The translations under genes and the position numbers were made by a program. The notes under the pieces are model-generated. The model made no database searches. It was not told the DNA's origin and saw only the letters and a list, made by a program, of their open reading frames with translations. From Spirochaetia bacterium (GTDB lineage: Bacteria > Spirochaetota > Spirochaetia > SZUA-6 > Bin103): 64,000 nt of DNA. The stretch covers positions 768,001 through 832,000 of the forward strand of contig CBDBOV010000006.1 of the NCBI GenBank assembly GCA_965208575.1, given 5' to 3'. Positions 2,547 through 50,208 of this stretch are shown here, piece by piece. Numbering within the stretch: position 1 is the first letter of the stretch; each line of letters begins with the position of its first letter.

Positions 2547-2735
2547 AGGTAACTCCGTTTGTTTGATTTCTGAGAGTATTGCGTAGCGGCTTACCGGATT
2601 ACCGCTCCCTGGCTACCCTCACGCCCGCAACGCGGGCGGCCACTGAGAGTCAACTGCGTAACGCGCGCGGCGTGTGACTCGGCCGGGTTCACGCCGCGCG
2701 CGTCCAGGGTTCCTTTAGTATCATTTTGCACCCCC
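2547..2735 (-). promoter_or_regulatory. Conserved structured 5' leader, copy A (micro-ORF plus hairpins P1-P3)
   Basis: Aligns by eye with copies at 13937-14130, 23713-23800, 33250-33432 and 48211-48402. Confidence 0.75.
2689..2724 (-). CDS. Putative leader peptide MILKEPWTRAA
   Basis: SD-like GGGGGTG upstream; synonymous third-position changes between copies. Confidence 0.45.
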   Translation of the reverse strand: MILKEPWTRAA

Positions 2736-12109: not shown

Positions 12110-13936
12110 CTAAAAACCCATTGCTTCCTTCATCTCCTGGTCAATCCAGATGCGGGCTAAGTGTTTGTGTCCCTCGGAATAAGATCCCAGTTCGCCGTTA
12201 TAACCTTTGACCCACGGCTGCGTTGCCTGGTACTGGGGGGTTTCAGGCCCCACTATCTTGAAATGCTGTTCTGTGATGTACATGTTTATTTCTTTTGCCA
12301 GCCTATGCATCTCCTCGATGGTGGTAGCGGCCATGACGGCGTCAGCCATGGCGTCATATTTGGGGTCGTTCAAGTGGCCGGTGCTGAGATTGCCTTTATA
12401 GAATTGATTTGTCAGACGGTCGGGGATACCATACCTGAAGGCCGCTTCCCCCCAACGAATTATGTACCTGTCCTGATCTGGATCATTATACATCGCGGTG
12501 ACTTCGGCTGACCCACCAGCCAAGACATCAGTCTGCGTGTCCACGCCAATCTCGCGCCAGTATCCGGCGACCAATTGCGCATAGCTCACATCGTACCGTT
12601 CGAAGTAGCCCATGCTCATCGTGAACCTGATACCGTCGGCGCCGCGCGGATAACCGGCCGCATCAAGCAACGCTTCGGCTCCCTCCGGGTCATACCTGTA
12701 GGTTTTCTTGACCGCTTCGGGCCACTCCTCGAATGGCGTGCCAATGCCCGGCACATCATTGGCGAAATGTCCCTGCGGAGTCGCATCGCCATAACCCTTG
12801 AAGTAGGTAGCTACAATGGTCTCGAGGTCCAGTGCCATCTGCAGTGCCTGGCGCACGCGGAGGTCATTCAAGGGCGGTATGTCCATACGGACGATATAGA
12901 ATGCGTTATCGGACCGAAACTTGAACGACCACAGCTTGATTTCCGGGTCGGTCCGCTGCAGGCTCTCTATCTGGTCGATCGACCTTAATGTACTGGCGCC
13001 GGGACCTAGCATATCAACCTTACCCGTGCGCAGAGCCGCGAGACGGGTTGCTGACTCCGCCATCCGCAAGGCCCTTATCTCGTCAGCATAGGGCAGACGG
13101 TTCTCCGGGTATTTTTCGTCGAACCCCCAGTAGTTGGGAGTCTTGGTCCAGGTCCTGGAGCTACCTTCGACCACCTCCGTCAGCTCATAGGGTCCGGTGC
13201 CGACCGTGTTCCGCCAATCCTGATAGTCGCCGTGTTGCTCGATGACCTCCGGAGGCATTACCGTAGCCGATCCACCCCAGCCGTAGCCGATAAAGAGTTT
13301 CACGGCGCTGAGGTTTGGCCTCTCCAGCTTGACGACCATCGTATACTTGTCGGTGGCCGTTACCGATTCGATCGGCAAAGCTACGAGGTTACGTGCCGCT
13401 GGGGTAGGTTCGGCTTCACTGAACGCGGTCCCTGCCAACTTGTTCCCCAAATAGCGGTGAAAGTTGTATTCTACGTCCTCGGCGGTGAGCTCCCGGCCGT
13501 TCATCGGCGCCTTGTCATGCCAGTGAACGCCCCTGCGGATGTTGAAGATAATGGTGGTATCGTCGGGCGTTTCCCAGCTTTCCGCCAGTGCCCCTCCTAT
13601 GGCCCATGCAGGTGTCTCTGCGAAGATCCGCCAGTTCCAGACGTCCCTGTCGTTTCCCCAGTCCCACATGGCGAGCTGCTCGTTAACCAAGCCGGTGCTG
13701 TCTTTCGCGTGGCCGTACCAGTCATCAACGTTGGTGCCCCAACTGACCAGGCCGTAGGTTAGTGTCCCGCCATACCGCGGCGCCTCCACCATCTCGCCGG
13801 TGGTCGGGTCGAGCACCATTTCCTTCTCGGCGGCGGCTGCCGGCTCCTCGTCTGCGCCCGCGGCCCAGAGGCCGGTTGCGGTCAGAACCAGGACCACCGC
13901 AACCGCGAAGGTCCTCGCAACTTGTACAATAAGCAT
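12110..13936 (-). CDS. ABC substrate-binding protein, family 5
   Basis: Start reassigned to MLIVQ (13936) by RBS ggag and paralog alignment; family-5 motifs. Confidence 0.92.
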   Translation of the reverse strand: MLIVQVARTFAVAVVLVLTATGLWAAGADEEPAAAAEKEMVLDPTTGEMVEAPRYGGTLTYGLVSWGTNVDDWYGHAKDSTGLVNEQLAMWDWGNDRDVWNWRIFAETPAWAIGGALAESWETPDDTTIIFNIRRGVHWHDKAPMNGRELTAEDVEYNFHRYLGNKLAGTAFSEAEPTPAARNLVALPIESVTATDKYTMVVKLERPNLSAVKLFIGYGWGGSATVMPPEVIEQHGDYQDWRNTVGTGPYELTEVVEGSSRTWTKTPNYWGFDEKYPENRLPYADEIRALRMAESATRLAALRTGKVDMLGPGASTLRSIDQIESLQRTDPEIKLWSFKFRSDNAFYIVRMDIPPLNDLRVRQALQMALDLETIVATYFKGYGDATPQGHFANDVPGIGTPFEEWPEAVKKTYRYDPEGAEALLDAAGYPRGADGIRFTMSMGYFERYDVSYAQLVAGYWREIGVDTQTDVLAGGSAEVTAMYNDPDQDRYIIRWGEAAFRYGIPDRLTNQFYKGNLSTGHLNDPKYDAMADAVMAATTIEEMHRLAKEINMYITEQHFKIVGPETPQYQATQPWVKGYNGELGSYSEGHKHLARIWIDQEMKEAMGF

Positions 13937-14130
13937 GCGTAACTCCATATATGGATTTCTTGAGAGTATTACGAAGCGACTTGTCGCTCCCTGGCTACTC
14001 TCACGCCGGCAACGCAGGCGGCCAGTCAGAGTCCAACTCACTAACAGCGCGCGGCGGGTGACTCACCGGGTTCACCCGGGCTCACGCCGCGCGCGCGTGC
14101 GGTTCTTTCAGTATCATCCTGCACCCTTGG
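13937..14130 (-). promoter_or_regulatory. Conserved structured 5' leader, copy B (micro-ORF MILKEPHARAA at 14082-14117)
   Basis: P1 about 14047-14094, P2 14004-14020, P3 13962-14002. Confidence 0.75.
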
Positions 14131-14335
14131 GGTGAGGCCGCCGTAGGAGGCGGCGCAAGGTCACGCCGGGGGCGCCAGTATCGCGAGGCGTCTCGGGACC
14201 GGCTCGGCGACTCGAAAGGGCCGGCGCCACCAATAGCTGCGGCGACTGCGGCGGTGGTAAACGCGACGGCGTGCGCGGGGCTGCGCACGCCGCGGTCATC
14301 CGGAGCGGGTAGCTGTTTCTCGTATAAAGAGTTAC

Positions 14336-14455
14336 GGGGGGGCTGATGCTTCACTGCGAGCCGGCAACGGCGCTGACTATCTTTCCGGCACGATGCGCCC
14401 ATCTATCAATTGCCCCAGTCAACCGTATGCTCACACGCGCAGGCAAACTTGTCAA
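14336..14455 (-). promoter_or_regulatory. Upstream promoter module: TTGACA-N17-GAGCAT, conserved gtcagcgc block, C7 tract
   Basis: Near-identical promoter at 23905-23933 and 33475-33503. Confidence 0.65.
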
Positions 14456-14562
14456 CCGCCCACCCGTCCCGGCCGTCGCGGTCCGCCTGCCGTGGAGAAG
14501 ACTCTTGTATGCCAATATCTTCTGCGATAATCTGAGGGAGATTTCCGTATAGGAGAGTTATC

Positions 14563-15786
14563 CTGAATCTGATCCCGCGACCCCTGTACACCGAGCGCAT
14601 CCTGCCGTTCATGAACAAGCCGCTCATCAAGGTGATTACGGGAGTCAGGCGAGCCGGCAAGAGCGCGCTCATTCAACTGCTGATCGACCACCTCACCGCG
14701 GGCGGCGTCCCGGCCGAGAACATTCTGAGCATCAACATGGAATCGCTGGAGTTCGAGGCGCTCGGCGACTACCGGAAACTCTACGACCATGTCCGCCGCC
14801 ACCTGCCGGACACCACGGAGTCCTACCTGTTCGTGGATGAGGTGCAAAACGTCGTCGGGTGGGAGCGGGCGATCGCGTCGGTTCTCGCCGATGGGTTGGC
14901 GGACGTCACGATCAGTGGGTCGAACGCGCGGCTACTGTCGTCGGATCTTGCCACCCGGCTCACGGGGCGGTACGTCGAGATTCCGGTGTATCCGTTGCTG
15001 TTCTCGGAGTTCATCCGATTCCAGGGAATAGAACCGAGCTCACCCGATGTTCGGGGGGCCTGGGACCGCTTCCTGCGCTATGGCGGGTTCCCGGGCATTC
15101 GCTACTTGAGCCTGGAGGATGAGCCGGTATTCGCCTACCTCAACTCGCTCTACCATACGATCGTGCTGAAGGACGTGGTCAATCGGCACCAAGTCAGAGA
15201 GCCGGCCCAGCTCGATGGCATTACGCGCTTTCTGTTCGACAACTGCGGCAACATCACCACGGCCAAGCGCATGACCGACTACATGAAGGCGCAGGGGCTG
15301 AGCGTATCCCTGTCGCGCGTGCAGAACTACCTCTCCTACCTGGAGGAGGCGTTCCTGGTATTCCGCTGCCGGCGGTACGACCTGAAGGGCATGCGCCACC
15401 TGGAACTGTACGACAAGTTCTACATGACCGACATCGGCATCCGGCACGGCCTGGTTGGCTACCGGGACAACGACCTTGCCGGGTTGCTCGAGAACGTGGT
15501 CTACCTGGAACTGCGCGCCCGTGGATACACGGTCAGCGTCGGCAAGTTCCGGGACTACGAGATCGACTTCGTCGCCGAGCGGCGGACCGAACGACTCTAC
15601 GTCCAGGTGTGCTACTCGCTGTCGAGTGAGGAGACGGTCGAGCGGGAGTACCGGTCACTCAGGCGGGTGCCCGATAACCATCCCAAGCTGGTCCTGTCAC
15701 TCGATACCGTGCAGCCGGCCAACCGTGGCGGCATTCGATGGCAGAATCTTGTCGATTTCCTGCTCAAGAACCCTCCGGTCGGGTGA
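14563..15786 (+). CDS. ATP-binding protein (AAA_14 plus DUF4143)
   Basis: ITGVRRAGKS, FVDEVQ, SGSNARLLS, YGGFP, LENVVYLEL, EIDF; family N-terminus (IPRPLY..I.PF) lies upstream of ATG 14611, suggesting a CTG start at 14563. Confidence 0.85.
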   Translation: MNLIPRPLYTERILPFMNKPLIKVITGVRRAGKSALIQLLIDHLTAGGVPAENILSINMESLEFEALGDYRKLYDHVRRHLPDTTESYLFVDEVQNVVGWERAIASVLADGLADVTISGSNARLLSSDLATRLTGRYVEIPVYPLLFSEFIRFQGIEPSSPDVRGAWDRFLRYGGFPGIRYLSLEDEPVFAYLNSLYHTIVLKDVVNRHQVREPAQLDGITRFLFDNCGNITTAKRMTDYMKAQGLSVSLSRVQNYLSYLEEAFLVFRCRRYDLKGMRHLELYDKFYMTDIGIRHGLVGYRDNDLAGLLENVVYLELRARGYTVSVGKFRDYEIDFVAERRTERLYVQVCYSLSSEETVEREYRSLRRVPDNHPKLVLSLDTVQPANRGGIRWQNLVDFLLKNPPVG

Positions 15787-17969: not shown

Positions 17970-19763
17970 TCAGCGCCGCACCTCGTCGCAGAACACCAGC
18001 TCCCAGCCGTGGAACACCACGACCAGGCCGATGAAGGTCACCCCCGGAAACTGCCGCGCCAGCCGCTCATCCGCCAGGTAGCGCTCGAGCTGCGCCGTCG
18101 CCTCTCCGGCCGCCGCCGCCACGCCGGCGTCGTCCGCCGGCCCGCTGCGCTGCAAGCGCCCACGCCGCTTGAGGTACTTGAGCTCGATCAGGTAGCCGCG
18201 CTGCAGGTGCGGATAGCGCGCCACCAGCGGCTCGAGCGCGATGTCCGCGTGTCCCTTTCCCAGTTCCGCCTCCGACCGGAACACGTAGTGGTCGGTCACG
18301 CTCAGATAGGCGGCGAGGAATCCTAAAGCCCCGGTACGGGGCTCAAGCACCTTCTCGCCACTGATGTAGTCGCGTATTCCGGTCTGCCGGGAGATCGCCT
18401 CGCTCAGGAACTCCAGTACCGGTCGCCACCCGCCCTCGTTGGCCATCCGCATCATCAACTGCTCAAACCGGAACAGGTTTACTGAAAACACCCCCACGTC
18501 GCGGTAGGCGTCGCGCAGAAACCCGTACATCAGCCGCTTCACGGTCTGGTTCGGGATCGCCAGCCGGGGCACCCGCTCCACCACGTCGCGGATGCTCAGC
18601 AGTCCGAAGTAGTGCAGCAGGGAGAAGAAGTTCTCCTGCTTGGTGAGGTCCTTCAGCGGAAAGCCGGGCTGGATGCGGGTGTCCACCTGCTCCTCGCCGA
18701 TCAAGTCCCTCAGCAGGTCGAAGTTGCCGTTGAGCTGCCGCCCGGTCACCAGCAGGTGACGCAGCTTGCCGTAGTCGATGCGCACGTTGGTGTCGATCAG
18801 TTCATCCGGCACCTCTCGGTTGGGAATCGAGTTGTCCAGGTAATACAGCACCATGTCGGTGTTGTAGAGATCGGTCTCGGCTGCCTTGGCGAAGCGGTAG
18901 CCGTTGTACCATTCGCCCATGATGCCCATGGCGGTCTCGACCTTCTGGTTGAACACGCCCAGGCCGCGGTACGTGTCGACCAGGTGCCGGACCTCCGCCT
19001 CGGTGAAGCCGACCATCTCGTTGAAGTCCGGGTGCAGGCTGATGTTCTTGCCGATGTTGAAGCCGCTGGTGACGTCGTCCATCGTGATCGGCGATACGCC
19101 GGTGATGAACAGCCGTTCCAGCCCGCCGCCGCTGCGCCCCGCCCCGGACTTGAGGGTGGCGAAGAAGTTGCGATAGAAGCCGCCGCCGTGGGTGAACGAG
19201 TGGTACGCCTCGGCGCCGTGGTACGCCAGCACGGTGTTGGCGAAGTTGTCGTACTCGTCGATGATCACGTACAGCGGGATGTCGTGGTCGCCGGCGTACC
19301 GGAACAACACCCCGAGCTTGGCGCTAATGGAGGGCCGCGTGAGGATGCGCTGCACCGCCGCGTCGGGAAACAGGTCGGGATGCCGCTCCAGCGTCCCCTG
19401 CAGCTCCGTGTGGCAGTAGATCTCGAACTCCCGCTCCAGGGTTTCCAGCTTGTCGTTGACGGTTGAAAAGTCGAAGCGCAGGGTGACGTAGCGGCTCTGT
19501 TCCCCGGTCGGGTCTCCGCCGATGTCGGTGCCGGCGAAGGTGGCGTCGAAGCCTTCCGCCCAGAAGCGGTCGTAGTAGTTCTCCAAGATCGACGCCCAGA
19601 GGGACTTGCCGAAGCGGCGCGGGCGGATCAGGAAGGCGTAGCGCTCCTCCTCGAGGCGGCGCAGGAAGCGGGTCTTGTCGACGTACAGCCACCGGTTCAG
19701 GCGGATGCGCCTGAAGTCGGCCTCGCCGTAGGGAATGCGCGGGTGCGTGGGTGGCGTTCTCAC
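17970..19763 (-). CDS. AAA-ATPase-like plus PD-(D/E)XK nuclease protein
   Basis: IPYGEADF, RPRRFGKS, IIDEYD, GHADI...IELKY; paralog of 45768..47528. Confidence 0.9.
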   Translation of the reverse strand: MRTPPTHPRIPYGEADFRRIRLNRWLYVDKTRFLRRLEEERYAFLIRPRRFGKSLWASILENYYDRFWAEGFDATFAGTDIGGDPTGEQSRYVTLRFDFSTVNDKLETLEREFEIYCHTELQGTLERHPDLFPDAAVQRILTRPSISAKLGVLFRYAGDHDIPLYVIIDEYDNFANTVLAYHGAEAYHSFTHGGGFYRNFFATLKSGAGRSGGGLERLFITGVSPITMDDVTSGFNIGKNISLHPDFNEMVGFTEAEVRHLVDTYRGLGVFNQKVETAMGIMGEWYNGYRFAKAAETDLYNTDMVLYYLDNSIPNREVPDELIDTNVRIDYGKLRHLLVTGRQLNGNFDLLRDLIGEEQVDTRIQPGFPLKDLTKQENFFSLLHYFGLLSIRDVVERVPRLAIPNQTVKRLMYGFLRDAYRDVGVFSVNLFRFEQLMMRMANEGGWRPVLEFLSEAISRQTGIRDYISGEKVLEPRTGALGFLAAYLSVTDHYVFRSEAELGKGHADIALEPLVARYPHLQRGYLIELKYLKRRGRLQRSGPADDAGVAAAAGEATAQLERYLADERLARQFPGVTFIGLVVVFHGWELVFCDEVRR

Positions 19764-23712: not shown

Positions 23713-23933
23713 ACGTAACTCCGTATGTTGATTTCTGAGAGTATTGCGTAGCGGCTTGCCGCTCCCCGGCTACTCTCGCGCCCGCAACGCGGGCGGCCGG
23801 CCAGTCCGGGGGGACGCGCCGGCTGCCTCGGTGCCAACCGGCCACGGCGCTGACTGTCATTTCGGCACGATGTGCCCATTTATCGATTGGCCCCAGTGCA
23901 ACGAATGCTCACACGCGCGGGCAAACGTGTCAA
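23713..23933 (-). promoter_or_regulatory. Leader copy C: promoter, C6 tract, P2 and P3 (P1 and micro-ORF absent)
   Basis: P3 23737-23777, P2 23779-23795, G6 on + strand 23808-23813, -10 23905-23910, -35 23928-23933. Confidence 0.7.
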
Positions 23934-33249: not shown

Positions 33250-33503
33250 ACGTAACTCCGTAGCTGATTTCTGAGAGTATTGCGTAGCGCCGTGCCGCTC
33301 CCTGGCTACTCTCGCGCCCGCAACGCGGGCGGCCGGCCAGACAGAGTCGAATTTGTGAAGCGCGCGGCGTGGGACTCACCGGGTACACGCCGCGCGCGCG
33401 TGCGGTTCTTTCAGTATCATCCTGCACCCTTGGGGCGCGGCCGCCGGAGGACACGGCGAACCCCAGTGAACCGTATGCTCACACGCGCGGGCAAACGTGT
33501 CAA
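33250..33503 (-). promoter_or_regulatory. Leader copy D: promoter, micro-ORF MILKEPHARAACTR (33376-33420) and P1-P3 (poly-C module absent)
   Basis: Alignment with copies A, B and E; TTGACA-N17-GAGCAT. Confidence 0.75.
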
Positions 33504-34082: not shown

Positions 34083-34232
34083 CCATATAATATACGTGGG
34101 TCATATGCATACATCCAGGTAGCCTGAATTGGAGTTGACCGTCGACGGCGATGAGAAGTATAAGGCGGGAAAATGGCATGGGACGGGTCGGCCGGACCAT
34201 GCACAGCAAACATCAAAGGAGGAGCGAATTTG

Positions 34233-36050
34233 ATGCTTCTTTCATTCAGGAGGGCGGCGGCAGTCGGGCTCGGGCTCATGCTTGCGGCGACCGCCCTGTG
34301 GGCTTCGGCCGCAGAGGAATCCTCCGCCGAGGCAGAGTTCGTCGAGGTAGAGCTCGCCAAGCTCGACGGCACCACCATGACCCGGCAGTTCGAGAAACCC
34401 CGCTACGGCGGCACGATCACCATGAACCGGGAGATCCTGCTGGTCTCGTTTTCGCTCTGGGATCCGAGGGGCGGTGGTGGACCGCATGAGCTGGCCAACA
34501 TCCAGATAACCAACCAGCGCCTCACGCAGCTCGACTGGGCTCGTGGTCCGTCCGGCACCGGTGACTACCCGGTGCGGTCCTACGTGGCGTCGTTCCCACC
34601 GAACCTGGCAGTTCCCATGCTGGCGGAGAGCTGGACGCGTCCCAACGCCACCTCGATGGTGTTCAAGTTGCGCGAAGGTGTGCACTTCTGGGAGAAAGGG
34701 GACATCGCGGAGCCGAACCCCGGGCTTGAAGCTGACTACGGGCGCGAGCTGACCGCCCATGACGTGGTCTTTTCGAAGAACACGATGAACTGGTTCCAGG
34801 TGGGCCAACCCGGCATTCCCACCTATACCGCCCTCGACGACCACACCCTGGAGATGTCGTGGCCCACGCCGGACCCGCTCCTGGCGGCCTTCCAGTGGTC
34901 GATGTTCCTGTTCGTCTTCAACGGGGGTATGGCGAACATCCCCGAGGACGACTGGGGCGACTGGCGAAACGCACTCGGTACCGGCTCCTACATCCCGACC
35001 GACTACGTGCCCGGCAGTACCGTCACCTACAAGCGCAATCCCAACTACTGGGAGAACGATCCGATTCACCCCGAGAATCGGCTGCCCTACGCTGACAACC
35101 TCCGCATCGTCGACTTCGACGACGAGGCGGCGATCATCGCAGCGCTGCGGGCCGGCCAACTCGACCTGACCAACGGCCTCGGCTCAACCGGCAAGTGGGG
35201 GACACAGCTCAAGGAGACGAACCCCGAGATTGGCCAAGCCCCCGCCGCCCCGACCCCTACGGTCTGGGTGCCGCGCGTGGATCTGCCGGACAACCCGTTC
35301 AGTGACATCAAGGTGCGGCAGGCGCTCATGATGTCCATTCCGCGCGACGAGGTCGTCGCGGACTTCTACGGCGGATTCGCGCTTCCGTTTGCCTATCCGA
35401 CGTTTCCTCACTTCCCGGATTACTTCGTCGCGTACGAGGATCTGCCGACCGAGCCGATGCTGCCCGGTTCGTGCGCCAGTGCTCGCGATGTGGTGACGTA
35501 CCTTCCCGACAAGGCGCGCGAGTGCCTCGCCGCGGCGGGGTACCCGGACGGCTTCGAGTTCGACCTGTGGACGCCGCCGGGTGAGGCCGAGTTCAACGAG
35601 CTGTACCAGGGTTACTGGAACGAGGTGGGCATCCGTGCCAACCTCAAGGTAGTCGAGCTCGCGGTGTGGCAGTCGGTCAAGGACCGGGAGGACCACCTCG
35701 GACTGACGAGCTGGACCCCGGGCATGTGGGCGCATCAGCACGAGCTGCTGTTCAATCAGCTGGTCAGCAACGCCACGGTCAACAGCGCGCGGACGGACGA
35801 CCCGATGTACGACGCGATCGCCGAGCTGGTCACCACGGAGCTCGACGAAGAGAAGAGGATCGCGGCGTGGCAGGAGTTCTTTCCCAAGGCGCTGGAGCAT
35901 ACCGTGTATCCACACGGCGTCCCGTTCGACAAGCTGACGTTCTGGAACCCATGGGTGAAGGGATACAGTGGAGAGATGAGCAACGTCGGCATCCAGGGCT
36001 GGCACTCGGTGGCCAAGAACATCTGGATCGACCAGTCGATGCAGCCGTAG
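34233..36050 (+). CDS. ABC substrate-binding protein, family 5
   Basis: RBS aggagg; promoter TTGACC-N18-TATAAG at about 34135; LWASAAEE signal. Confidence 0.92.
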   Translation: MLLSFRRAAAVGLGLMLAATALWASAAEESSAEAEFVEVELAKLDGTTMTRQFEKPRYGGTITMNREILLVSFSLWDPRGGGGPHELANIQITNQRLTQLDWARGPSGTGDYPVRSYVASFPPNLAVPMLAESWTRPNATSMVFKLREGVHFWEKGDIAEPNPGLEADYGRELTAHDVVFSKNTMNWFQVGQPGIPTYTALDDHTLEMSWPTPDPLLAAFQWSMFLFVFNGGMANIPEDDWGDWRNALGTGSYIPTDYVPGSTVTYKRNPNYWENDPIHPENRLPYADNLRIVDFDDEAAIIAALRAGQLDLTNGLGSTGKWGTQLKETNPEIGQAPAAPTPTVWVPRVDLPDNPFSDIKVRQALMMSIPRDEVVADFYGGFALPFAYPTFPHFPDYFVAYEDLPTEPMLPGSCASARDVVTYLPDKARECLAAAGYPDGFEFDLWTPPGEAEFNELYQGYWNEVGIRANLKVVELAVWQSVKDREDHLGLTSWTPGMWAHQHELLFNQLVSNATVNSARTDDPMYDAIAELVTTELDEEKRIAAWQEFFPKALEHTVYPHGVPFDKLTFWNPWVKGYSGEMSNVGIQGWHSVAKNIWIDQSMQP

Positions 36051-36458
36051 TGGCCTTTCTTGGCACTGCGATAAGCTGACCACGGGTTGGCGCGGTTCCT
36101 TCGGGGACCGTCGCCAACCTTGTGTATCCAATCCTCGAAGCCGGCACAGCCTGGACAAGTCAGCGCAGTGGCCGGTCGGCGGTCACGGTCGGTGACCTCG
36201 GTCAGCCCCACCCACCCGTCGCGGCAGCTACCGGCACGTTGACAGGGGTTTGGCCGGATCGCTATATTCCGGGGCGGCCGTCAAGGCCGGTAATGCCGGA
36301 AACGCCGGCAAAACGAGGCACAAGCAAACCTTGGTTCCTGAGAGCGATGTTGCCGTCCCCGGGGCGACCGTCCGACGGGGCGGGAGTCGGCCGACGCGCG
36401 GGCGTGGGGCGGGAACTGGCGGAACATGCGCGATACACACAAAGGGAGAGCAAATTTG

Positions 36459-38282
36459 ATGCTTATTTCGATCAGGAGGGCGGCGGCAGTCATGCTCGGG
36501 CTCGGACTCGTGCTGACGTCGACTGCCCTGTGGGCTTCGGCCGCGGAGGAAGCCTCCGCCGAGGCAGAGTTCGTCGACCTGGAGCTCACCAAGCTCGACG
36601 GCAGCACCATGACGAGGAACTACGAGAAGCCTCGCTACGGTGGCACCATCACCATGAACCGCGAGATCCTGCTGGTCTCGTTCTCTCTGTGGGATCCACG
36701 GAGCGGTGGCGGACCCCACGAGCTGGCGAATGTCCAGGTAACCAACCAGCGCCTCTCGCAGTTGGACTGGGCACATGGTCCGTCCGGTACCGGTGAATAC
36801 GACGTGCGGCAGTATACCGCGGCGAACCCACCAGCCCTGGCTGTTCCCATGCTGGCGGAGAGCTGGACAATCCCCAATCCGACCTCGATGGTGTTCAAGA
36901 TGCGCGAAGGCGTTCACTTCTGGGCGGAAGAAGACGTAGCGCAGGCGAATCCCGGGCTACAGGCTGACTACGGGCGCGAGCTGACTGCCCATGACGTGGT
37001 CTTCTCGAAAAACACGTCGAACTGGTACCGGCAGGGCATGCCCGGCATAGCCACCTATACCGCCCTCGACGACCACACCCTGGAGGTGTCGTGGCCTGAG
37101 CCCGACCCACTCCTCGAGGCTTTCAAGTTGTCGATGTACCTGTTCATCTTCAACGGCGGGATGGCGAACATCCCGGAGGGCGATTGGGGGGACTGGCAAA
37201 ACGCACTCGGTACCGGCTCCTACATCCCCACGGACTACGTGCCGGGCAGCAGCGTTACGTACAAGCGCAATCCCAACTACTGGGAGAACGATCCGATTCA
37301 CCCCGAGAATCGGCTGCCCTACGCTGACAACCTGCGCATCGTCGACTTCGACGACGAGGCGTCGATCATCGCCGCGTTGCGGGCTGGTCAGATCGACCTG
37401 ACCAACGGCCTCGGCTCGTCGGGCAAGTGGGGGCTGCAGCTCAAGGACACGAACCCCGAGATTGGCCAGGCGCCCGCCGCCCCGACCCCTACGGTCTGGG
37501 TGCCACGCGTGGACCTGCCAGACAGCCCGTTCAGTGACATCAAGGTGCGGCAGGCGCTGATGATGTCCATTCCGCGCGACGAGGTGGTCAAGGACTTCTA
37601 TGGCGGGTTCGCAGTTCCGTACTCGTATCCGACGTTTCCCGCGTTCCCGGATTACTTCGTCGCGTACGACCAACTGCCAACCGAGCCCATGCTGCCTGGT
37701 TCGTGCGCCAGCGCGCGCGACGTGGTCACCTACAATCCCGACAAGGCGAGGGATTGTCTCGCTCAGGCAGGGTTCCCCGACGGCTTCGAGTTCGACCTGT
37801 GGACGCCGCCGGGTGAGGCCGAGTTCAACGAGCTCTACCAGGGTTACTGGAACGAGGTGGGCATCCGCGCCAACCTCAAGGTGGTCGAGGGCGCGGTGTG
37901 GCAATCGGTCAAGGACCGGGAGGACCACCTCGGGCTGGCGAGCTGGACGCCGGGCATGTGGCAGCACCATTACGAGCTGCTTTTCAATCAGCTGACCAGC
38001 AACGCCACGGTCAACAGCGCACGGACGTCCGAACCGATGTACGACGCGATCGCCGCGGTTGTGACTACCGAGTTCGACGAACAGAAGCGGATCGCGGCGT
38101 ATCGGGAGTTCTTTCCCAAGGCGCTGGAGGATAGCGCGTATCCGCACGGCGTCGCGTTCGACAAGCTGACGTTCTGGAACCCATGGGTGAAGGGATACAG
38201 CGGAGAGATGAGCAACGTCGGCATCCAGGGCTGGCACTCGGTGGCCAAGAACATCTGGATCGACCAGGCGATGCAGCCGTAG
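36459..38282 (+). CDS. ABC substrate-binding protein, family 5 (tandem paralog of 34233)
   Basis: High identity to the upstream SBP; promoter TTGACA-N18-TATATT at about 36239. Confidence 0.92.
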   Translation: MLISIRRAAAVMLGLGLVLTSTALWASAAEEASAEAEFVDLELTKLDGSTMTRNYEKPRYGGTITMNREILLVSFSLWDPRSGGGPHELANVQVTNQRLSQLDWAHGPSGTGEYDVRQYTAANPPALAVPMLAESWTIPNPTSMVFKMREGVHFWAEEDVAQANPGLQADYGRELTAHDVVFSKNTSNWYRQGMPGIATYTALDDHTLEVSWPEPDPLLEAFKLSMYLFIFNGGMANIPEGDWGDWQNALGTGSYIPTDYVPGSSVTYKRNPNYWENDPIHPENRLPYADNLRIVDFDDEASIIAALRAGQIDLTNGLGSSGKWGLQLKDTNPEIGQAPAAPTPTVWVPRVDLPDSPFSDIKVRQALMMSIPRDEVVKDFYGGFAVPYSYPTFPAFPDYFVAYDQLPTEPMLPGSCASARDVVTYNPDKARDCLAQAGFPDGFEFDLWTPPGEAEFNELYQGYWNEVGIRANLKVVEGAVWQSVKDREDHLGLASWTPGMWQHHYELLFNQLTSNATVNSARTSEPMYDAIAAVVTTEFDEQKRIAAYREFFPKALEDSAYPHGVAFDKLTFWNPWVKGYSGEMSNVGIQGWHSVAKNIWIDQAMQP

Positions 38283-40439: not shown

Positions 40440-42254
40440 GTGACTATTTGCAAATGGAAGGCACTGTTCGCCGTGGCGGCGGCCGTGTTGCTGACGGCAA
40501 TCGGCGCCTGGGCCACTCCCGCCGCGGAGGAAGGGTCCGACGCTGCCATGTCGCCCTCGGACATCGACACCGTTCCGGTCTATGGCGGCAATCTCACCAC
40601 CGCCGACAACACCTGGTCGAGCGTCTGGGACCCGACGGTGCTCATTCACGGCATCCAGGTGGTGCCGGCCATCTACGATCAGTTGTTCGAGTACGACATC
40701 ACCCAGGGGCCACGCGGCACCGGCGAGTGGGGGTTGAACGACTTCAACTGGCAGAATCCCAACGTGATCACGTTCCAGGTCATCGAGTCCAACACGGTAC
40801 TGAGCCCGACCCAGTTGCGGTGGAAGATTCGCAGGGGCATCCACTACCACGACCGGCCGCCGGCCAACGGCAGAGAGATGACCGTGGAAGACGTGCTCGT
40901 CACGTGGGAGCACGTTACCGCGGAGCCAAGATCCGGCCTGATGTACAAGGGCGACGAGCTCCTCAAGATGACCGCCGATCCGAACGACCCCTGGGCGATC
41001 AACGTCGAACTGGCGGCGCCCGACAGCCTGGGTCTGTGGGTCTATCTCACCAGTGCCCTGAACGGCGTTCTGCCGGCCGAGTGGTGGCGGGATGACTCCA
41101 TCAACCGGGAGGACTGGCGCAGCCACATGGGATCGGGGCCGTTCTGGCCCATCGACGTCGTCGAGGGCAGCCACATTACCTACACCAGGAACCCCAACTA
41201 CTGGCAGACCGATCCTCTGAATCCCGGTAACCAGTTGCCGTACCTGGACACCATGCAGATCATCTCCTTCGCCGATGGCGCGGCGCGGATCGCGGCCCTG
41301 CGCAGCGGCAAGCTCGACCGCCAGGTGCAAAACGGCCTGACGCCCACGCAGATTGACGATCTGAGGCGGAGCAACCCGGAAATACGAACCAACGAGACGT
41401 GGGCCCACGGGCAGTATGCTGCGTTGCGTGCCGACCTGGCGCCGTGGAACGACATCCGCGTGCGGCAGGCGGCGATGCTCGCCATCGACCACGAGGCGCT
41501 CCGGGACTTCTTCACGCCGGAGCACTACCACTACCCGGGGTTCCCCGTGAAGCGGTCAGCCGGGAAGCCCCAGTACCATACCAGGGAGGAGCTGGCCGCG
41601 GTGCGTCCTGACCTCGCCCGGTTGTACGAATACCATCCCGACGAGGCCGAGCGGCTTCTCGACGAGGCCGGATACCCGCGTGGCGAGGACGGCATCCGTT
41701 TCGAGACCACCTTCATTACCGACTCCGGGCTCGATGAGAACTACCCCGCGTATTTTGCGTACTTCGAGGACGTCGGCATCCGGGTCAACATGGACCCGAT
41801 CCCGAACGGCGGCCACTGGGGCATGATCGGCGGTGCGGACGGTCCGAACGACGAGCACTTTACCGGCTTGGCGTTTCACAATGCCGGCGGCACCAGCTTC
41901 TCGGTCCTGGCCACACACTTCTGGAACGCACCGTATCGGCCGTTCTACAGCATGGGCCGTATCCAGGGTTCTCCCGAGGCCCTCGAGGTGGAGCGATTGT
42001 TCAACGAGGTCAACCTGCTCGAGGCCAACACTCCCGAGTGGACCGACGCGCTTCTGGATCTGGTCTTCTACTGGCAGGAGCAGCTCTGGTTCCTGGACTT
42101 CGGCGCCGTCCACGAGTACATGGCATGGCAGCCGTGGGTGAAGGGAAAAGAGGGCATGAGCGGACTGCAGACCTACCAGTACCACTTCACCAAGTACTTC
42201 TGGATCGACGCGGCCCTGAAGAAGGAGCTCAGCGGGCGCGACGCGGACGAATAG
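40440..42254 (+). CDS. ABC substrate-binding protein, family 5
   Basis: RBS aggagg with GTG start; AWATPAAEE signal; NPNYW, PWVKG. Confidence 0.92.
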   Translation: MTICKWKALFAVAAAVLLTAIGAWATPAAEEGSDAAMSPSDIDTVPVYGGNLTTADNTWSSVWDPTVLIHGIQVVPAIYDQLFEYDITQGPRGTGEWGLNDFNWQNPNVITFQVIESNTVLSPTQLRWKIRRGIHYHDRPPANGREMTVEDVLVTWEHVTAEPRSGLMYKGDELLKMTADPNDPWAINVELAAPDSLGLWVYLTSALNGVLPAEWWRDDSINREDWRSHMGSGPFWPIDVVEGSHITYTRNPNYWQTDPLNPGNQLPYLDTMQIISFADGAARIAALRSGKLDRQVQNGLTPTQIDDLRRSNPEIRTNETWAHGQYAALRADLAPWNDIRVRQAAMLAIDHEALRDFFTPEHYHYPGFPVKRSAGKPQYHTREELAAVRPDLARLYEYHPDEAERLLDEAGYPRGEDGIRFETTFITDSGLDENYPAYFAYFEDVGIRVNMDPIPNGGHWGMIGGADGPNDEHFTGLAFHNAGGTSFSVLATHFWNAPYRPFYSMGRIQGSPEALEVERLFNEVNLLEANTPEWTDALLDLVFYWQEQLWFLDFGAVHEYMAWQPWVKGKEGMSGLQTYQYHFTKYFWIDAALKKELSGRDADE

Positions 42255-48210: not shown

Positions 48211-48402
48211 GAGGTGCGAGTCATACTCAAAGAACCACTCCCGCGCGCGGCGTGAGCCCGGGTGAACCCGGTGAGTCACACGCCGCGCGCTTCAGGAAGT
48301 TGACTCTTATCTGGCTGGCCGCCTGCGTTGCGGGCGCGAGAGTAGCCACGGAGCGACAAGTCGCTCCCCAATACTCTCAACATTCCATCGAAGGAAGACA
48401 CG
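48211..48402 (+). promoter_or_regulatory. Conserved structured 5' leader, copy E
   Basis: (V)ILKEPLPRAA* ending 48255; P1 48243-48290; P2 48320-48336; P3 48338-48378. Confidence 0.75.
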
Positions 48403-50208
48403 ATGAAGATATTCTTCACCCGGACTTTCGCGGTTGCGGTAGTCCTGGTGCTGACCGCAACCGGCCTCTGGGCCGCCGGCGCAGAAGAGGCGCCGGCAGC
48501 CGCCGCCGACAAGCAGTATGTGACCGACCCCACCACCGGCAAGGTGGTGTCCGCGCCAGAGTATGGCGGGACAATAACCTACGCGCTATCAACAGACCTT
48601 CCGGGACCTGACACCGTGCTCACTGGTGGAGCGGCGGCTCACTCCGCCGGTCCCGTTGTAGAGAAGCTGGGCGCCGCAGACTGGGCAGCTCCCAGGGACA
48701 TGTTCTCGTTCAACATCTATGAACTCAATATTCCTGCTAACACGAGAGGGGTGCTGGCGGAGAGCTGGTCGCAACCCGACCCACTGACGTATATCATCAA
48801 AGTCCGCCAGGGCGTTCACTGGCATGATAAGGCACCGATGAACGGCCGGGAGCTGACTGCCGAGGATGTCGAGTACAACTTTCATCGTATGGTGGGTATA
48901 GGTAGCGGTTTCACCGAGAAGAGCCCTATGGCTTATAGCTTCCGAGCTGGGGAATTCGACTCGATAACGGCCACCGACCAATCGACGGTTGTTTTTAGGA
49001 TGAACAAGCCCCGCCTCAGTGCGCTGGCTTCTATCCTCGACGACTGGTCTGCCTGGATATATCCCCCCGAGGTGATCAAGGAACACGGGGATGTTTCGGA
49101 TTGGAGAAACCTCGTCGGAACCGGACCCATGATGATGACTGGCTGGACCAAAGACAGCTCTCGCACCTATGAGAGGAATCCGGACTACTGGGGCTACGAC
49201 GAGAAATACCCCGAGAACCGCTTGCCCTACATTGACCGGCTGAGGGGCCTGGTTATGCCCGAAGTCGCAACACGAACGGCTGCACTGCGCTCGGGTCAGG
49301 TTGATTACGTAGGTGCGCTCGGCTTAACTTCATTGAGGAATCTCGACCAGGTAGAGAGCCTCCAGCGCACCAACCCCGAAATCCTGATATCGTCGTATAC
49401 GTTTCGGAATGATGGTGCTGTTGGGTTGAACGTTCAGCTAGAGCCCTTTGACGACATCAGAGTGCGCAAGGCCATGCAGATGGCAATAAACCTCGATGAA
49501 ATCAACAATTCCTACTTTGGAGGGTTTGGAGATACGACGCCTCAGGGGAAGGTAAGCAGGTCTTATACAGCGGCTGTCACCCAATTCGAAGATTGGCCCG
49601 AAGATGTCAAGAAGGTCTTTGACTACGACCCGGAAGGTGCCGAAGCGTTGCTTGATGAGGCCGGTTATCCTCGCGGCGCCGACGGTATCAGATTCAAGAC
49701 CAGGTTCTTGCATCTCGAGCGGTACGATTTGAACTATACGCAATTGATCACTTCATACTGGAACAAGATTGGCATCGATGTAGTAGACATTGCGGTAGAA
49801 CCATCACCTGCATTTGGCGCCAGAAGAACTGCCAAGGATTACGAACTGATCAATCACGAGTTGGCCAACTATGGGGATCCCATAAACCACATGACGCATT
49901 ATTCGAATCGGGAGAGCAACCCATACGGGGCGCATTCCAATGTCAACGACCCCGATTATGAGGCCATGCTTGAGGCTGCCGAAGCCGCTACCACTATTGA
50001 GGAGCAGCACAGGTTAGTTCGAGAGTTGAATCAATATGGGATTGAGAAGTTCTGGATGATATGGACTCCTAATGGTCCACAATTCAACGCGATCCAACCG
50101 TGGATCATAGGTTTCAACAACGAAAACTGGATGGGTAACGGTCAAGTCCTGGTAGTGTTCACCCGTCTGTGGATTGACCAGGATCTGAAGACGGAGATGG
50201 GTTATTAG
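48403..50208 (+). CDS. ABC substrate-binding protein, family 5
   Basis: 601 aa; LWAAGAEE signal; family motifs. Confidence 0.92.
   Translation: MKIFFTRTFAVAVVLVLTATGLWAAGAEEAPAAAADKQYVTDPTTGKVVSAPEYGGTITYALSTDLPGPDTVLTGGAAAHSAGPVVEKLGAADWAAPRDMFSFNIYELNIPANTRGVLAESWSQPDPLTYIIKVRQGVHWHDKAPMNGRELTAEDVEYNFHRMVGIGSGFTEKSPMAYSFRAGEFDSITATDQSTVVFRMNKPRLSALASILDDWSAWIYPPEVIKEHGDVSDWRNLVGTGPMMMTGWTKDSSRTYERNPDYWGYDEKYPENRLPYIDRLRGLVMPEVATRTAALRSGQVDYVGALGLTSLRNLDQVESLQRTNPEILISSYTFRNDGAVGLNVQLEPFDDIRVRKAMQMAINLDEINNSYFGGFGDTTPQGKVSRSYTAAVTQFEDWPEDVKKVFDYDPEGAEALLDEAGYPRGADGIRFKTRFLHLERYDLNYTQLITSYWNKIGIDVVDIAVEPSPAFGARRTAKDYELINHELANYGDPINHMTHYSNRESNPYGAHSNVNDPDYEAMLEAAEAATTIEEQHRLVRELNQYGIEKFWMIWTPNGPQFNAIQPWIIGFNNENWMGNGQVLVVFTRLWIDQDLKTEMGY

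Follow-up and report, generated by a model that had tools for sequence, protein, structure and literature searches.

The leader described here has been amplified through one genus of uncultured, sponge-associated spirochaetes, where it stands before operons for solute-binding proteins (SBPs) and opens with a mini-ORF, of 11 codons in most copies, that ends inside a GC-rich hairpin. Its pattern of substitution strongly indicates that selection acts on it as a coding frame, and this upstream ORF (uORF) is very probably translated. We propose that the uORF and the hairpin, P1, form a translated, cis-acting switch whose output is most likely Rho-dependent termination or control of mRNA fate, a reading to which we give about an even chance. 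The genus-restricted leader is new; regulatory uORFs and leader peptides are already a known kind. What is unusual is the number of operons (29-81 per genome in the five copy-rich genomes), the SBP class of the genes, and the rule that the stop codon falls inside a hairpin. Regulatory uORFs in bacteria are usually single-operon devices, and a genus-wide, amplified uORF leader would be an unusual regulon design: if the proposed switch is real, one small uORF would tie 29-81 nutrient-uptake operons per genome to the state of translation, in a lineage that seems to live on host compounds.

Copy B, one of five leaders in the 64-kb window (the whole stretch of DNA analysed, to which all positions refer unless a contig is named), lies on the minus strand and illustrates the layout. 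Its ~190-nt leader, before an SBP_bac_5 gene, opens with an 11-codon mini-ORF that runs from an ATG at 14117 to a TGA at 14082 (ATG ATA CTG AAA GAA CCG CAC GCG CGC GCG GCG TGA) and would encode MILKEPHARAA. An SD-like GGGTG precedes it at 14122..14126, where most paralogs have GGAGG or GGAGGTG instead. Codons 8-11 and the stop codon make up the 5' arm of P1 (14047..14094), a GC-rich stem of 13 bp with an apical mini-hairpin CCGGG-TGAA-CCCGG, and the stop itself (14084-14082) sits at the top of that arm. Beyond P1, on the same strand, come a linker motif (T)GACTC (14029..14034), whose complement GAGTCA tops the 3' arm of P1, hairpin P2 (GCCTGCGTTGCCGGC, 14005..14019), helix P3 (GAGAGTA / TACTCTC, 13961..14003), which encloses hairpin P3b, and a possible pseudoknot between CTGGC (14025-14021) and GCCAG (13995-13991). 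An A-rich tail separates P3 from the SD of the main gene. This SD (GGAG) and its ATG (13934..13946, minus strand) have a small hairpin of their own, ~145 nt downstream of the uORF and P1, and pair with neither of these in any fold. The SBP gene (12110..13936, minus strand) encodes a protein of 608 aa with a signal peptide (Pfam E = 9.7e-63) and is followed on the same strand by two ABC permease genes (12024-11011 and 11001-10069; BPD_transp_1, E = 3.6e-31 and 1.6e-25).

The small hairpin at the main start (13934-13955, minus strand, and the paralogs; columns 217-245 of alignment A2) places the SD in the loop, with the ATG as part of the stem, and its arms change together, as in CATAC...GTATG (the type of most paralogs), CATAG...CTATG and TATGG...CCATG. 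CsrA was considered as a trans-acting factor for this hairpin with GGA in the loop and was rejected, because no CsrA gene was found in the 95%-complete genome.

The main evidence for a coding frame is the kind of substitution that the copies have accepted. In 132 copies that align gap-free through codon 7, we counted variant cells at codons 3-6 (L-K-E-P): read in frame, 75 are synonymous and 14 non-synonymous, although only 8 of the 36 possible single changes in the true frame would be synonymous. The corresponding counts are 20 and 77 in frame +1 and 5 and 82 in frame +2. It is this difference between the true and the shifted frames that leads us to regard the uORF as very probably translated. 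Variation at the two-fold sites (AAR, GAR) is almost only A/G, with 36 transitions and 2 transversions, whereas the four-fold sites (CTN, CCN) show 6 transitions and 33 transversions (Fisher p = 3e-13, calculated on cells that are not independent). K, E and P are retained in 128, 126 and 131 of the 132 copies, and the stop has changed from TGA to TAA three times. Because the copies are related paralogs, cell counts overstate the number of independent events; counted by kind of change instead, 7 of 8 synonymous and 9 of 28 non-synonymous kinds are observed (p = 0.008). Gene conversion could add to the conservation. An earlier note on this DNA had read four of these ORFs, in copies A, B and D on the minus strand and E on the plus strand; its letters and coordinates are exact, and the differences within ILKEP among the four copies are, as it stated, all synonymous third positions.

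Codon choice within the uORF has a feature of its own. A-ending codons are preferred across all copies (ATA in 103/132, AAA in 119/132, GAA in 99/132) in a genome of 67% G+C, and the third base of codon 2, ATA, is near-invariant, which may point to an additional constraint, for instance a need for little structure around the start or for slow decoding. The predicted probability of being unpaired is 0.35 for the uORF SD and 0.47 for its AUG, and the main start region is likewise moderate.

How well are the start, the SD and the stop kept? To avoid circularity, leaders for this comparison were selected by their 3' half only (nhmmer, alignment A3), giving a set of 154: all 60 from the copy's own genome and 94 distinct leaders from seven other genomes of the genus, the latter being the best-scoring or first-listed matches, blind to the uORF and biased to canonical 3' halves. 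The uORF region is kept in 143 of the 154, and the other 11, copy C included, have no recognisable 5' half. Among the 143, the start codon is ATG in 112, GTG in 14, TTG in 5, CTG in 3 and something else in 9, so that 131 have an ATG, GTG or TTG start and 12 have no canonical start; where the first base of the start codon has changed it has mostly become G or T (19 of 22 NTG variants). An exact GGAGG is found in 89/143, and in 87 of these 89 the motif ends 5-6 nt ahead of the start codon. It extends to GGAGGTG, the complement of the usual 3' end of 16S rRNA, in 57/143, and a 4-mer SD core is present in 126/143. The SD-like element that the earlier note had seen upstream of the frame is therefore real, although copy B has only GGGTG. 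Peptide length is 11 aa in 111 of the 143, 14 in 8, 9 in 1, 6 in 11, 4 in 1 and 7 in 1, the remaining 10 being longer read-through forms or unscorable. A canonical start combined with a stop within P1 occurs in 112/143, which bears out the claim that the micro-ORF stops inside this hairpin well beyond the copies for which it was made. Chance would not come near to producing such a pattern.

The stop stays inside P1 even where P1 itself has changed. A divergent subfamily has a different P1 sequence, and its uORF still ends within P1, in the loop. In copies without the P1 apex the frame changes so that it ends at the following TGA, which tops the 3' arm; in copy D (micro-ORF MILKEPHARAACTR*, 33376..33420, minus strand) the apex is shorter by 11 nt and the stop has moved to the TGA of GGTGAGTC, on the 3' side of P1. 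Given these two cases, the constant feature is the end of translation inside P1, rather than any one position or sequence within it. A selenocysteine insertion signal after the UGA was also considered and, by eye, rejected, because indels at the P1 apex are not multiples of three.

Two groups of copies depart from the usual length. Eleven of the 143 have a short form, MILKEP* or VxLKEP*, with a TAG at codon 7, 2 nt before P1 (for example L164, L177, L034, L178 and, in the own genome G000, C6:964024); this TAG is one step from TAC, and a Glu-Pro-stop context slows termination in E. coli. Others have lost 2 nt from the (CG)n run in the 5' arm of P1, which puts the uORF out of its usual frame (C5:323740 and C6:981193 in G000, L210, L213). 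The frame of C5:323740 and C6:981193 then runs for 40 codons through P1 to a TAG inside the conserved GAGAGTAGCC of P3, and L210 and L213 stop earlier, after 17 and 23 codons. The 2-nt loss is possibly slippage-prone variation.

As for the RNA itself, P1 folds in every copy tested, with about -28 to -44 kcal/mol for the segment, and over 56 copies 98.6% of the cells of its 13 pairs are paired. No compensatory change was found in P1 among these 56 copies, an alignment that cannot separate conservation of structure from conservation of sequence. The model of the 3' half has 93.3% of cells paired, against 29-46% when the partners are slid, and 7 pairs with compensatory changes, where shuffles give 3.6 +/- 1.1 and reach as many in 4 of 500; within it, P2 has 99% of cells paired and one pair with a compensatory change. 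These values lend modest support to the predicted P2, P3 and P3b and to the possible CUGGC:GCCAG pseudoknot. We also folded leaders with the stop-codon region held single-stranded, which mimics a terminating ribosome. Under this constraint GAGUCA from the top of the P1 3' arm pairs with the linker UGACUC in a predicted helix of 7 pairs, with 88% of cells paired against 8-47% when slid and with no covariation; by eye, the helix is absent from the divergent subfamily. The constrained folds show no consistent change at the main start region.

The leader is abundant in some genomes of the genus and was found in that genus only. BLAST with the copy B leader finds 61 places in its own 6.5-Mb genome, and a covariance model built from the 3' half alone (P2-P3, uORF excluded) finds 60. 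In the same genus the model has matches in seven of ten further genomes (G005 81, G001 40, G006 34, G003 29, G007 4, G004 1, G008 1) and none in the other three (G002, G009, G010); 13 genomes from the sister genus in the family gave no match either. A BLAST search over 61 genomes of the order agrees with this distribution; outside the genus it returned only two marginal short matches (25 and 49 nt), which we did not count. A pattern scan of public-genome DNA with an 18-base P3 motif (16 bases specified) gave at least 87 stretches, and among those listed at least six are true leaders by BLAST, five of them on one spirochaete MAG record and the sixth being L139; the other listed stretches are chance matches. 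Near-identical pieces of the leader also occur in RNA libraries labelled sponge metagenome. Rfam gave no gathering-score match over the 64-kb window, and in 13900-14480 only two chance-level matches, with E of 4.8 or more. No paper on this leader, or on uORFs upstream of SBP genes in spirochaetes associated with sponges, came up in a full-text literature search.

Within the window, sequence conservation is higher in the leader than in the gene that follows it. Leader copies share 62-81% of their nucleotides and the signal-peptide parts 77-86%, against 63-68% nucleotide and 44-53% protein identity for the mature part of the SBP; the close pair C and D is the exception, with 81% nucleotide and 72% protein identity in the mature part. 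The genus offers about 250 natural leader variants with which to work out how a stop codon placed in a hairpin is read. More generally, conserved leader motifs of transporter genes deserve a check for tiny ORFs before they are called riboswitch candidates.

Why would a leader ORF end inside a hairpin? The switch that we propose builds on what is directly seen: conserved sequence, selection specific to one frame, an SD, a stop placed in P1, and a uORF that is contained in contigs from RNA libraries. Since the stop lies in the 5' arm, the loop or the top of the 3' arm of P1, a ribosome finishing the uORF would have to unzip this GC-rich stem, and ribosome traffic on the uORF may set whether P1 is closed or open. 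With P1 open, the GAGUCA of its 3' arm would be free to pair with the linker UGACUC. The choice might then be relayed to the ~145-nt structured leader before the SBP operon, the rest of which would fold, or be attacked, differently, and the output would be premature, probably Rho-dependent, termination or control of mRNA decay. The conserved peptide core x-L-K-E-P suggests that the rate at which the ribosome departs, through pausing or arrest, would be part of the signal. Translation, the importance of P1 melting and the output are the steps that we infer. Among possible outputs we favour Rho or decay because Rho is encoded in the genome, intrinsic terminators seem scarce, and control of Rho by uORFs is an established class. 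In the leader, no rut-like stretch stands out (the C/G ratio reaches 1.2 in the 22-nt linker and does not exceed 0.92 in the rest), and what comes after the uORF stop is a GC hairpin instead of unstructured, C-rich RNA.

PMC12360218 describes uORF-controlled Rho attenuation as such a class, with tnaC, speFL, mgtL, corL and cruR as members: for tnaC, speFL and cruR, what becomes of the transcript downstream depends on the ribosome at the uORF stop codon, and for mgtL and corL, translation of the uORF re-folds the leader. Our leader resembles these systems and mgtM in having a short predicted uORF in a long leader, a conserved peptide core and a genome that encodes Rho, and its stop, too, sits at a structural switch point. 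The uORF with a conserved peptide that marks tnaC and speFL is present here in sequence terms, as an SD, a start and selection on L-K-E-P. Unlike tnaC and speFL, the leader has no rut site that we could find, and its peptide is unrelated to theirs in sequence. The TnaC and SpeFL peptides are also far longer than its 11 residues. A further difference from the Rho-attenuator uORFs, each tied to one operon, is that about 60-80 operons per genome share a single leader type.

A sensing role for the nascent chain would go further. The peptide with its K-E-P core might cause a pause or arrest at or near the P1 stop in response to a metabolite or to the general supply of charged tRNAs, and 60-80 operons for peptide and solute uptake might be co-regulated in this way, depending on whether P1 or the alternative helix forms. 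We consider this unlikely, at under half the chance that we give to the general switch; were it true, it would to our knowledge be the largest leader-peptide regulon described.

The main rival to the proposed switch grants that the uORF is translated and denies that it senses anything: it would be a constitutive stabiliser of highly expressed SBP mRNAs and a shield against Rho and RNases. This is the logic of 5' stabilisers and STAB-SD elements, in which a strong SD and hairpins lie close to the 5' end of abundant mRNAs. The likeness is evident, as the leader has a strong, extended SD near its probable 5' end, behind a variable 5' hairpin, together with the hairpins that follow, and a stabiliser would be in keeping with the lack of any terminator or SD sequestration in what we found, with the intact genes behind start-less copies, and with the use of one leader by about 60 different SBP operons whose promoter regions differ. 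Loading of ribosomes needs no conserved peptide, however, yet K-E-P is kept while synonymous sites drift, and a stabiliser would leave unexplained the retention of the stop within P1 across both families of P1 sequence; 5' stabilisers and 5' mini-cistrons require neither feature. On balance we judge this rival unlikely, about on a par with nascent-chain sensing. A role at the level of RNA, as a structure, a binding site for protein or RNA, or a product of gene conversion, with the ORF incidental and untranslated, strikes us as more improbable still. It would suit a leader that is highly conserved and structured throughout, and it can point to the near-invariant third position of the ATA codon, a hint of constraint on the RNA, to the TACTC of the uORF, which repeats the TACTCTC of the P3 3' arm, and to the 12 of 143 copies without a canonical start. 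It does not account for a 3-nt periodicity with degeneracy-matched substitutions in one frame only, for the preference for G or T when the first base of the start codon changes, for the canonical spacing of the SD, or for stop-to-stop changes.

Classical attenuation, in which P1 would terminate transcription intrinsically unless a ribosome ran into it, fares much worse, and we hold it very improbable both as coupling of the pyrBI/pyrE kind and as starvation sensing of the trp kind. In pyrBI and pyrE translation of the leader ORF runs into a hairpin, as it would here, where the stop codon lies inside a very stable one, and some subfamilies have TTTT after P1. Of 56 copies, however, only 6 have at least five T among the 8 nt that follow P1, against four or fewer in 50 and two or fewer in 31, and a terminator scan of the leader strand gave no terminator-like site. 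The absence of terminators after P1 weighs less than it might, because this DNA shows no enrichment of canonical U-tract terminators (15 over 20 kb, 10.9 +/- 3.1 in shuffles) and terminators here may look different. Terminator-like matches at 14083-14099 and 33386-33402 lie on the opposite strand, with no gene to use them, and cannot explain the coding signature. A trp/his/leu/ilv-type leader would need a run of one regulatory codon, and MILKEPHARAA consists of 8 different residues, among which only Ala repeats, its codons belonging to the P1 stem. The leader thus differs from pyrBI, pyrE and the trp, his, leu and ilv systems in that most copies have no U-tract terminator and no tandem regulatory codons, and also in that the genes behind it serve uptake and not biosynthesis. 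The Corynebacterium ilvB uORF (PMC10272879) is a further leader-peptide case for comparison; as in the ilvB-II motif, a conserved motif that looks like an RNA contains a uORF.

Attenuation by SD release is the other established scheme for very short leader peptides beside a hairpin. In erm, cat and cmlA a ribosome on the leader ORF opens a hairpin that sequesters the main SD; in our leader P1 is unrelated to the main SD, and the main SD and ATG, far downstream in their own hairpin, are never touched by P1 in the folds, so we rejected this type. Of the leader-peptide attenuator that the earlier note proposed, the conserved coding uORF with its stop in P1 stands, and the trp/erm-type logic is not supported, as the scan gave no terminator on the leader strand, the main SD pairs with neither the uORF nor P1, and the peptide has no run of one regulatory codon.

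The earlier note had itself offered another reading of the same letters, which takes GATACT for a -10 box, with transcription starting some 7 nt further on. GATACT does have an A at position 2 and a T at position 6, and homology among the copies begins only about 10-20 nt upstream. These two bases, which matter most in a sigma-70 -10 hexamer, are the least conserved of the six (A2 in 44/56, T6 in 48/56), whereas the non-consensus C5 is invariant (56/56); the upstream sequence is variable, with no conserved -35, and a conserved SD lies exactly where the spacer would be. A promoter also leaves the coding signature unexplained, and copy D has a good TTGACA-N17-GAGCAT 55 nt upstream of its uORF. 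RNA-library contigs from two studies cross GATACT and extend upstream past the ATG and the SD by another 39-58 bases, although such contigs give neither starts, ends nor levels, sum over paralogs and relatives, and may contain contaminating DNA. We regard the promoter reading as the least credible of all.

Returning to the proposed switch, some copies show what happens when the uORF is damaged. Seven of the nine own-genome copies with a non-canonical start, and copy C as well, precede full-length SBP ORFs (598-607 aa). In these own-genome non-canonical-start copies P1 is not weakened, and we found no link between loss of the uORF and decay of the gene. Because start-less copies and copy C still stand before full-length SBP ORFs, the uORF is dispensable for keeping the gene.

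The window contains five leaders: the micro-ORF is intact in A, B and D, its start is replaced by GTC in E, and C consists of the 3' half only. Copy A (MILKEPWTRAA*, 2689..2724, minus strand) precedes an SBP gene at 2546-759. Copy E (VILKEPLPRAA*, 48220..48255, plus strand), in which the loss of the ATG reported earlier is confirmed, precedes an intact SBP gene at 48403-50208. Copy C (23713..23804, minus strand) retains only P2, P3 and the tail, with unrelated sequence in place of the uORF and P1, and its SBP gene (23712-21913) is likewise intact. The sequence that replaces the uORF and P1 in copy C is another conserved stretch (GGGCACATCGTGCCGAAATGACAGTCAGCGCC..., 23805-23900, minus strand), which is present also far upstream of copy B (14340-14400, minus strand). 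This recurrence makes the leader look modular.

A promoter-like element, TTGACA-N17-GAGCAT with TGT before the GAGCAT, lies upstream of three of the window's leaders on the minus strand: at 14427..14455, ~310 nt upstream of the uORF of B; at 33503-33475 in the case of D; and at about 23905-23933 upstream of C. These are its only three occurrences in the whole genome. A promoter scan near B and D gave no site above the threshold of the tool, and TTGACA-N17-GAGCAT also scored below it. Its spacer contains an inverted repeat, ACACG...CGTGT. Upstream regions of the other leader subfamilies are unrelated, so that promoters differ while the leader is shared.

The SBPs behind leaders in the window form one subfamily, 44-71% identical to one another, against 27-31% identity with three leaderless SBP_bac_5 genes in the window (34173-36050, 36426-38282 and 40440-42254, plus strand), two of which are a tandem pair with 85% identity. 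Between the SBP operons lie an AAA_14/DUF4143 gene (14611-15786, plus strand) and an AAA-ATPase_like/PDDEXK_9 gene (17970-19763, minus strand).
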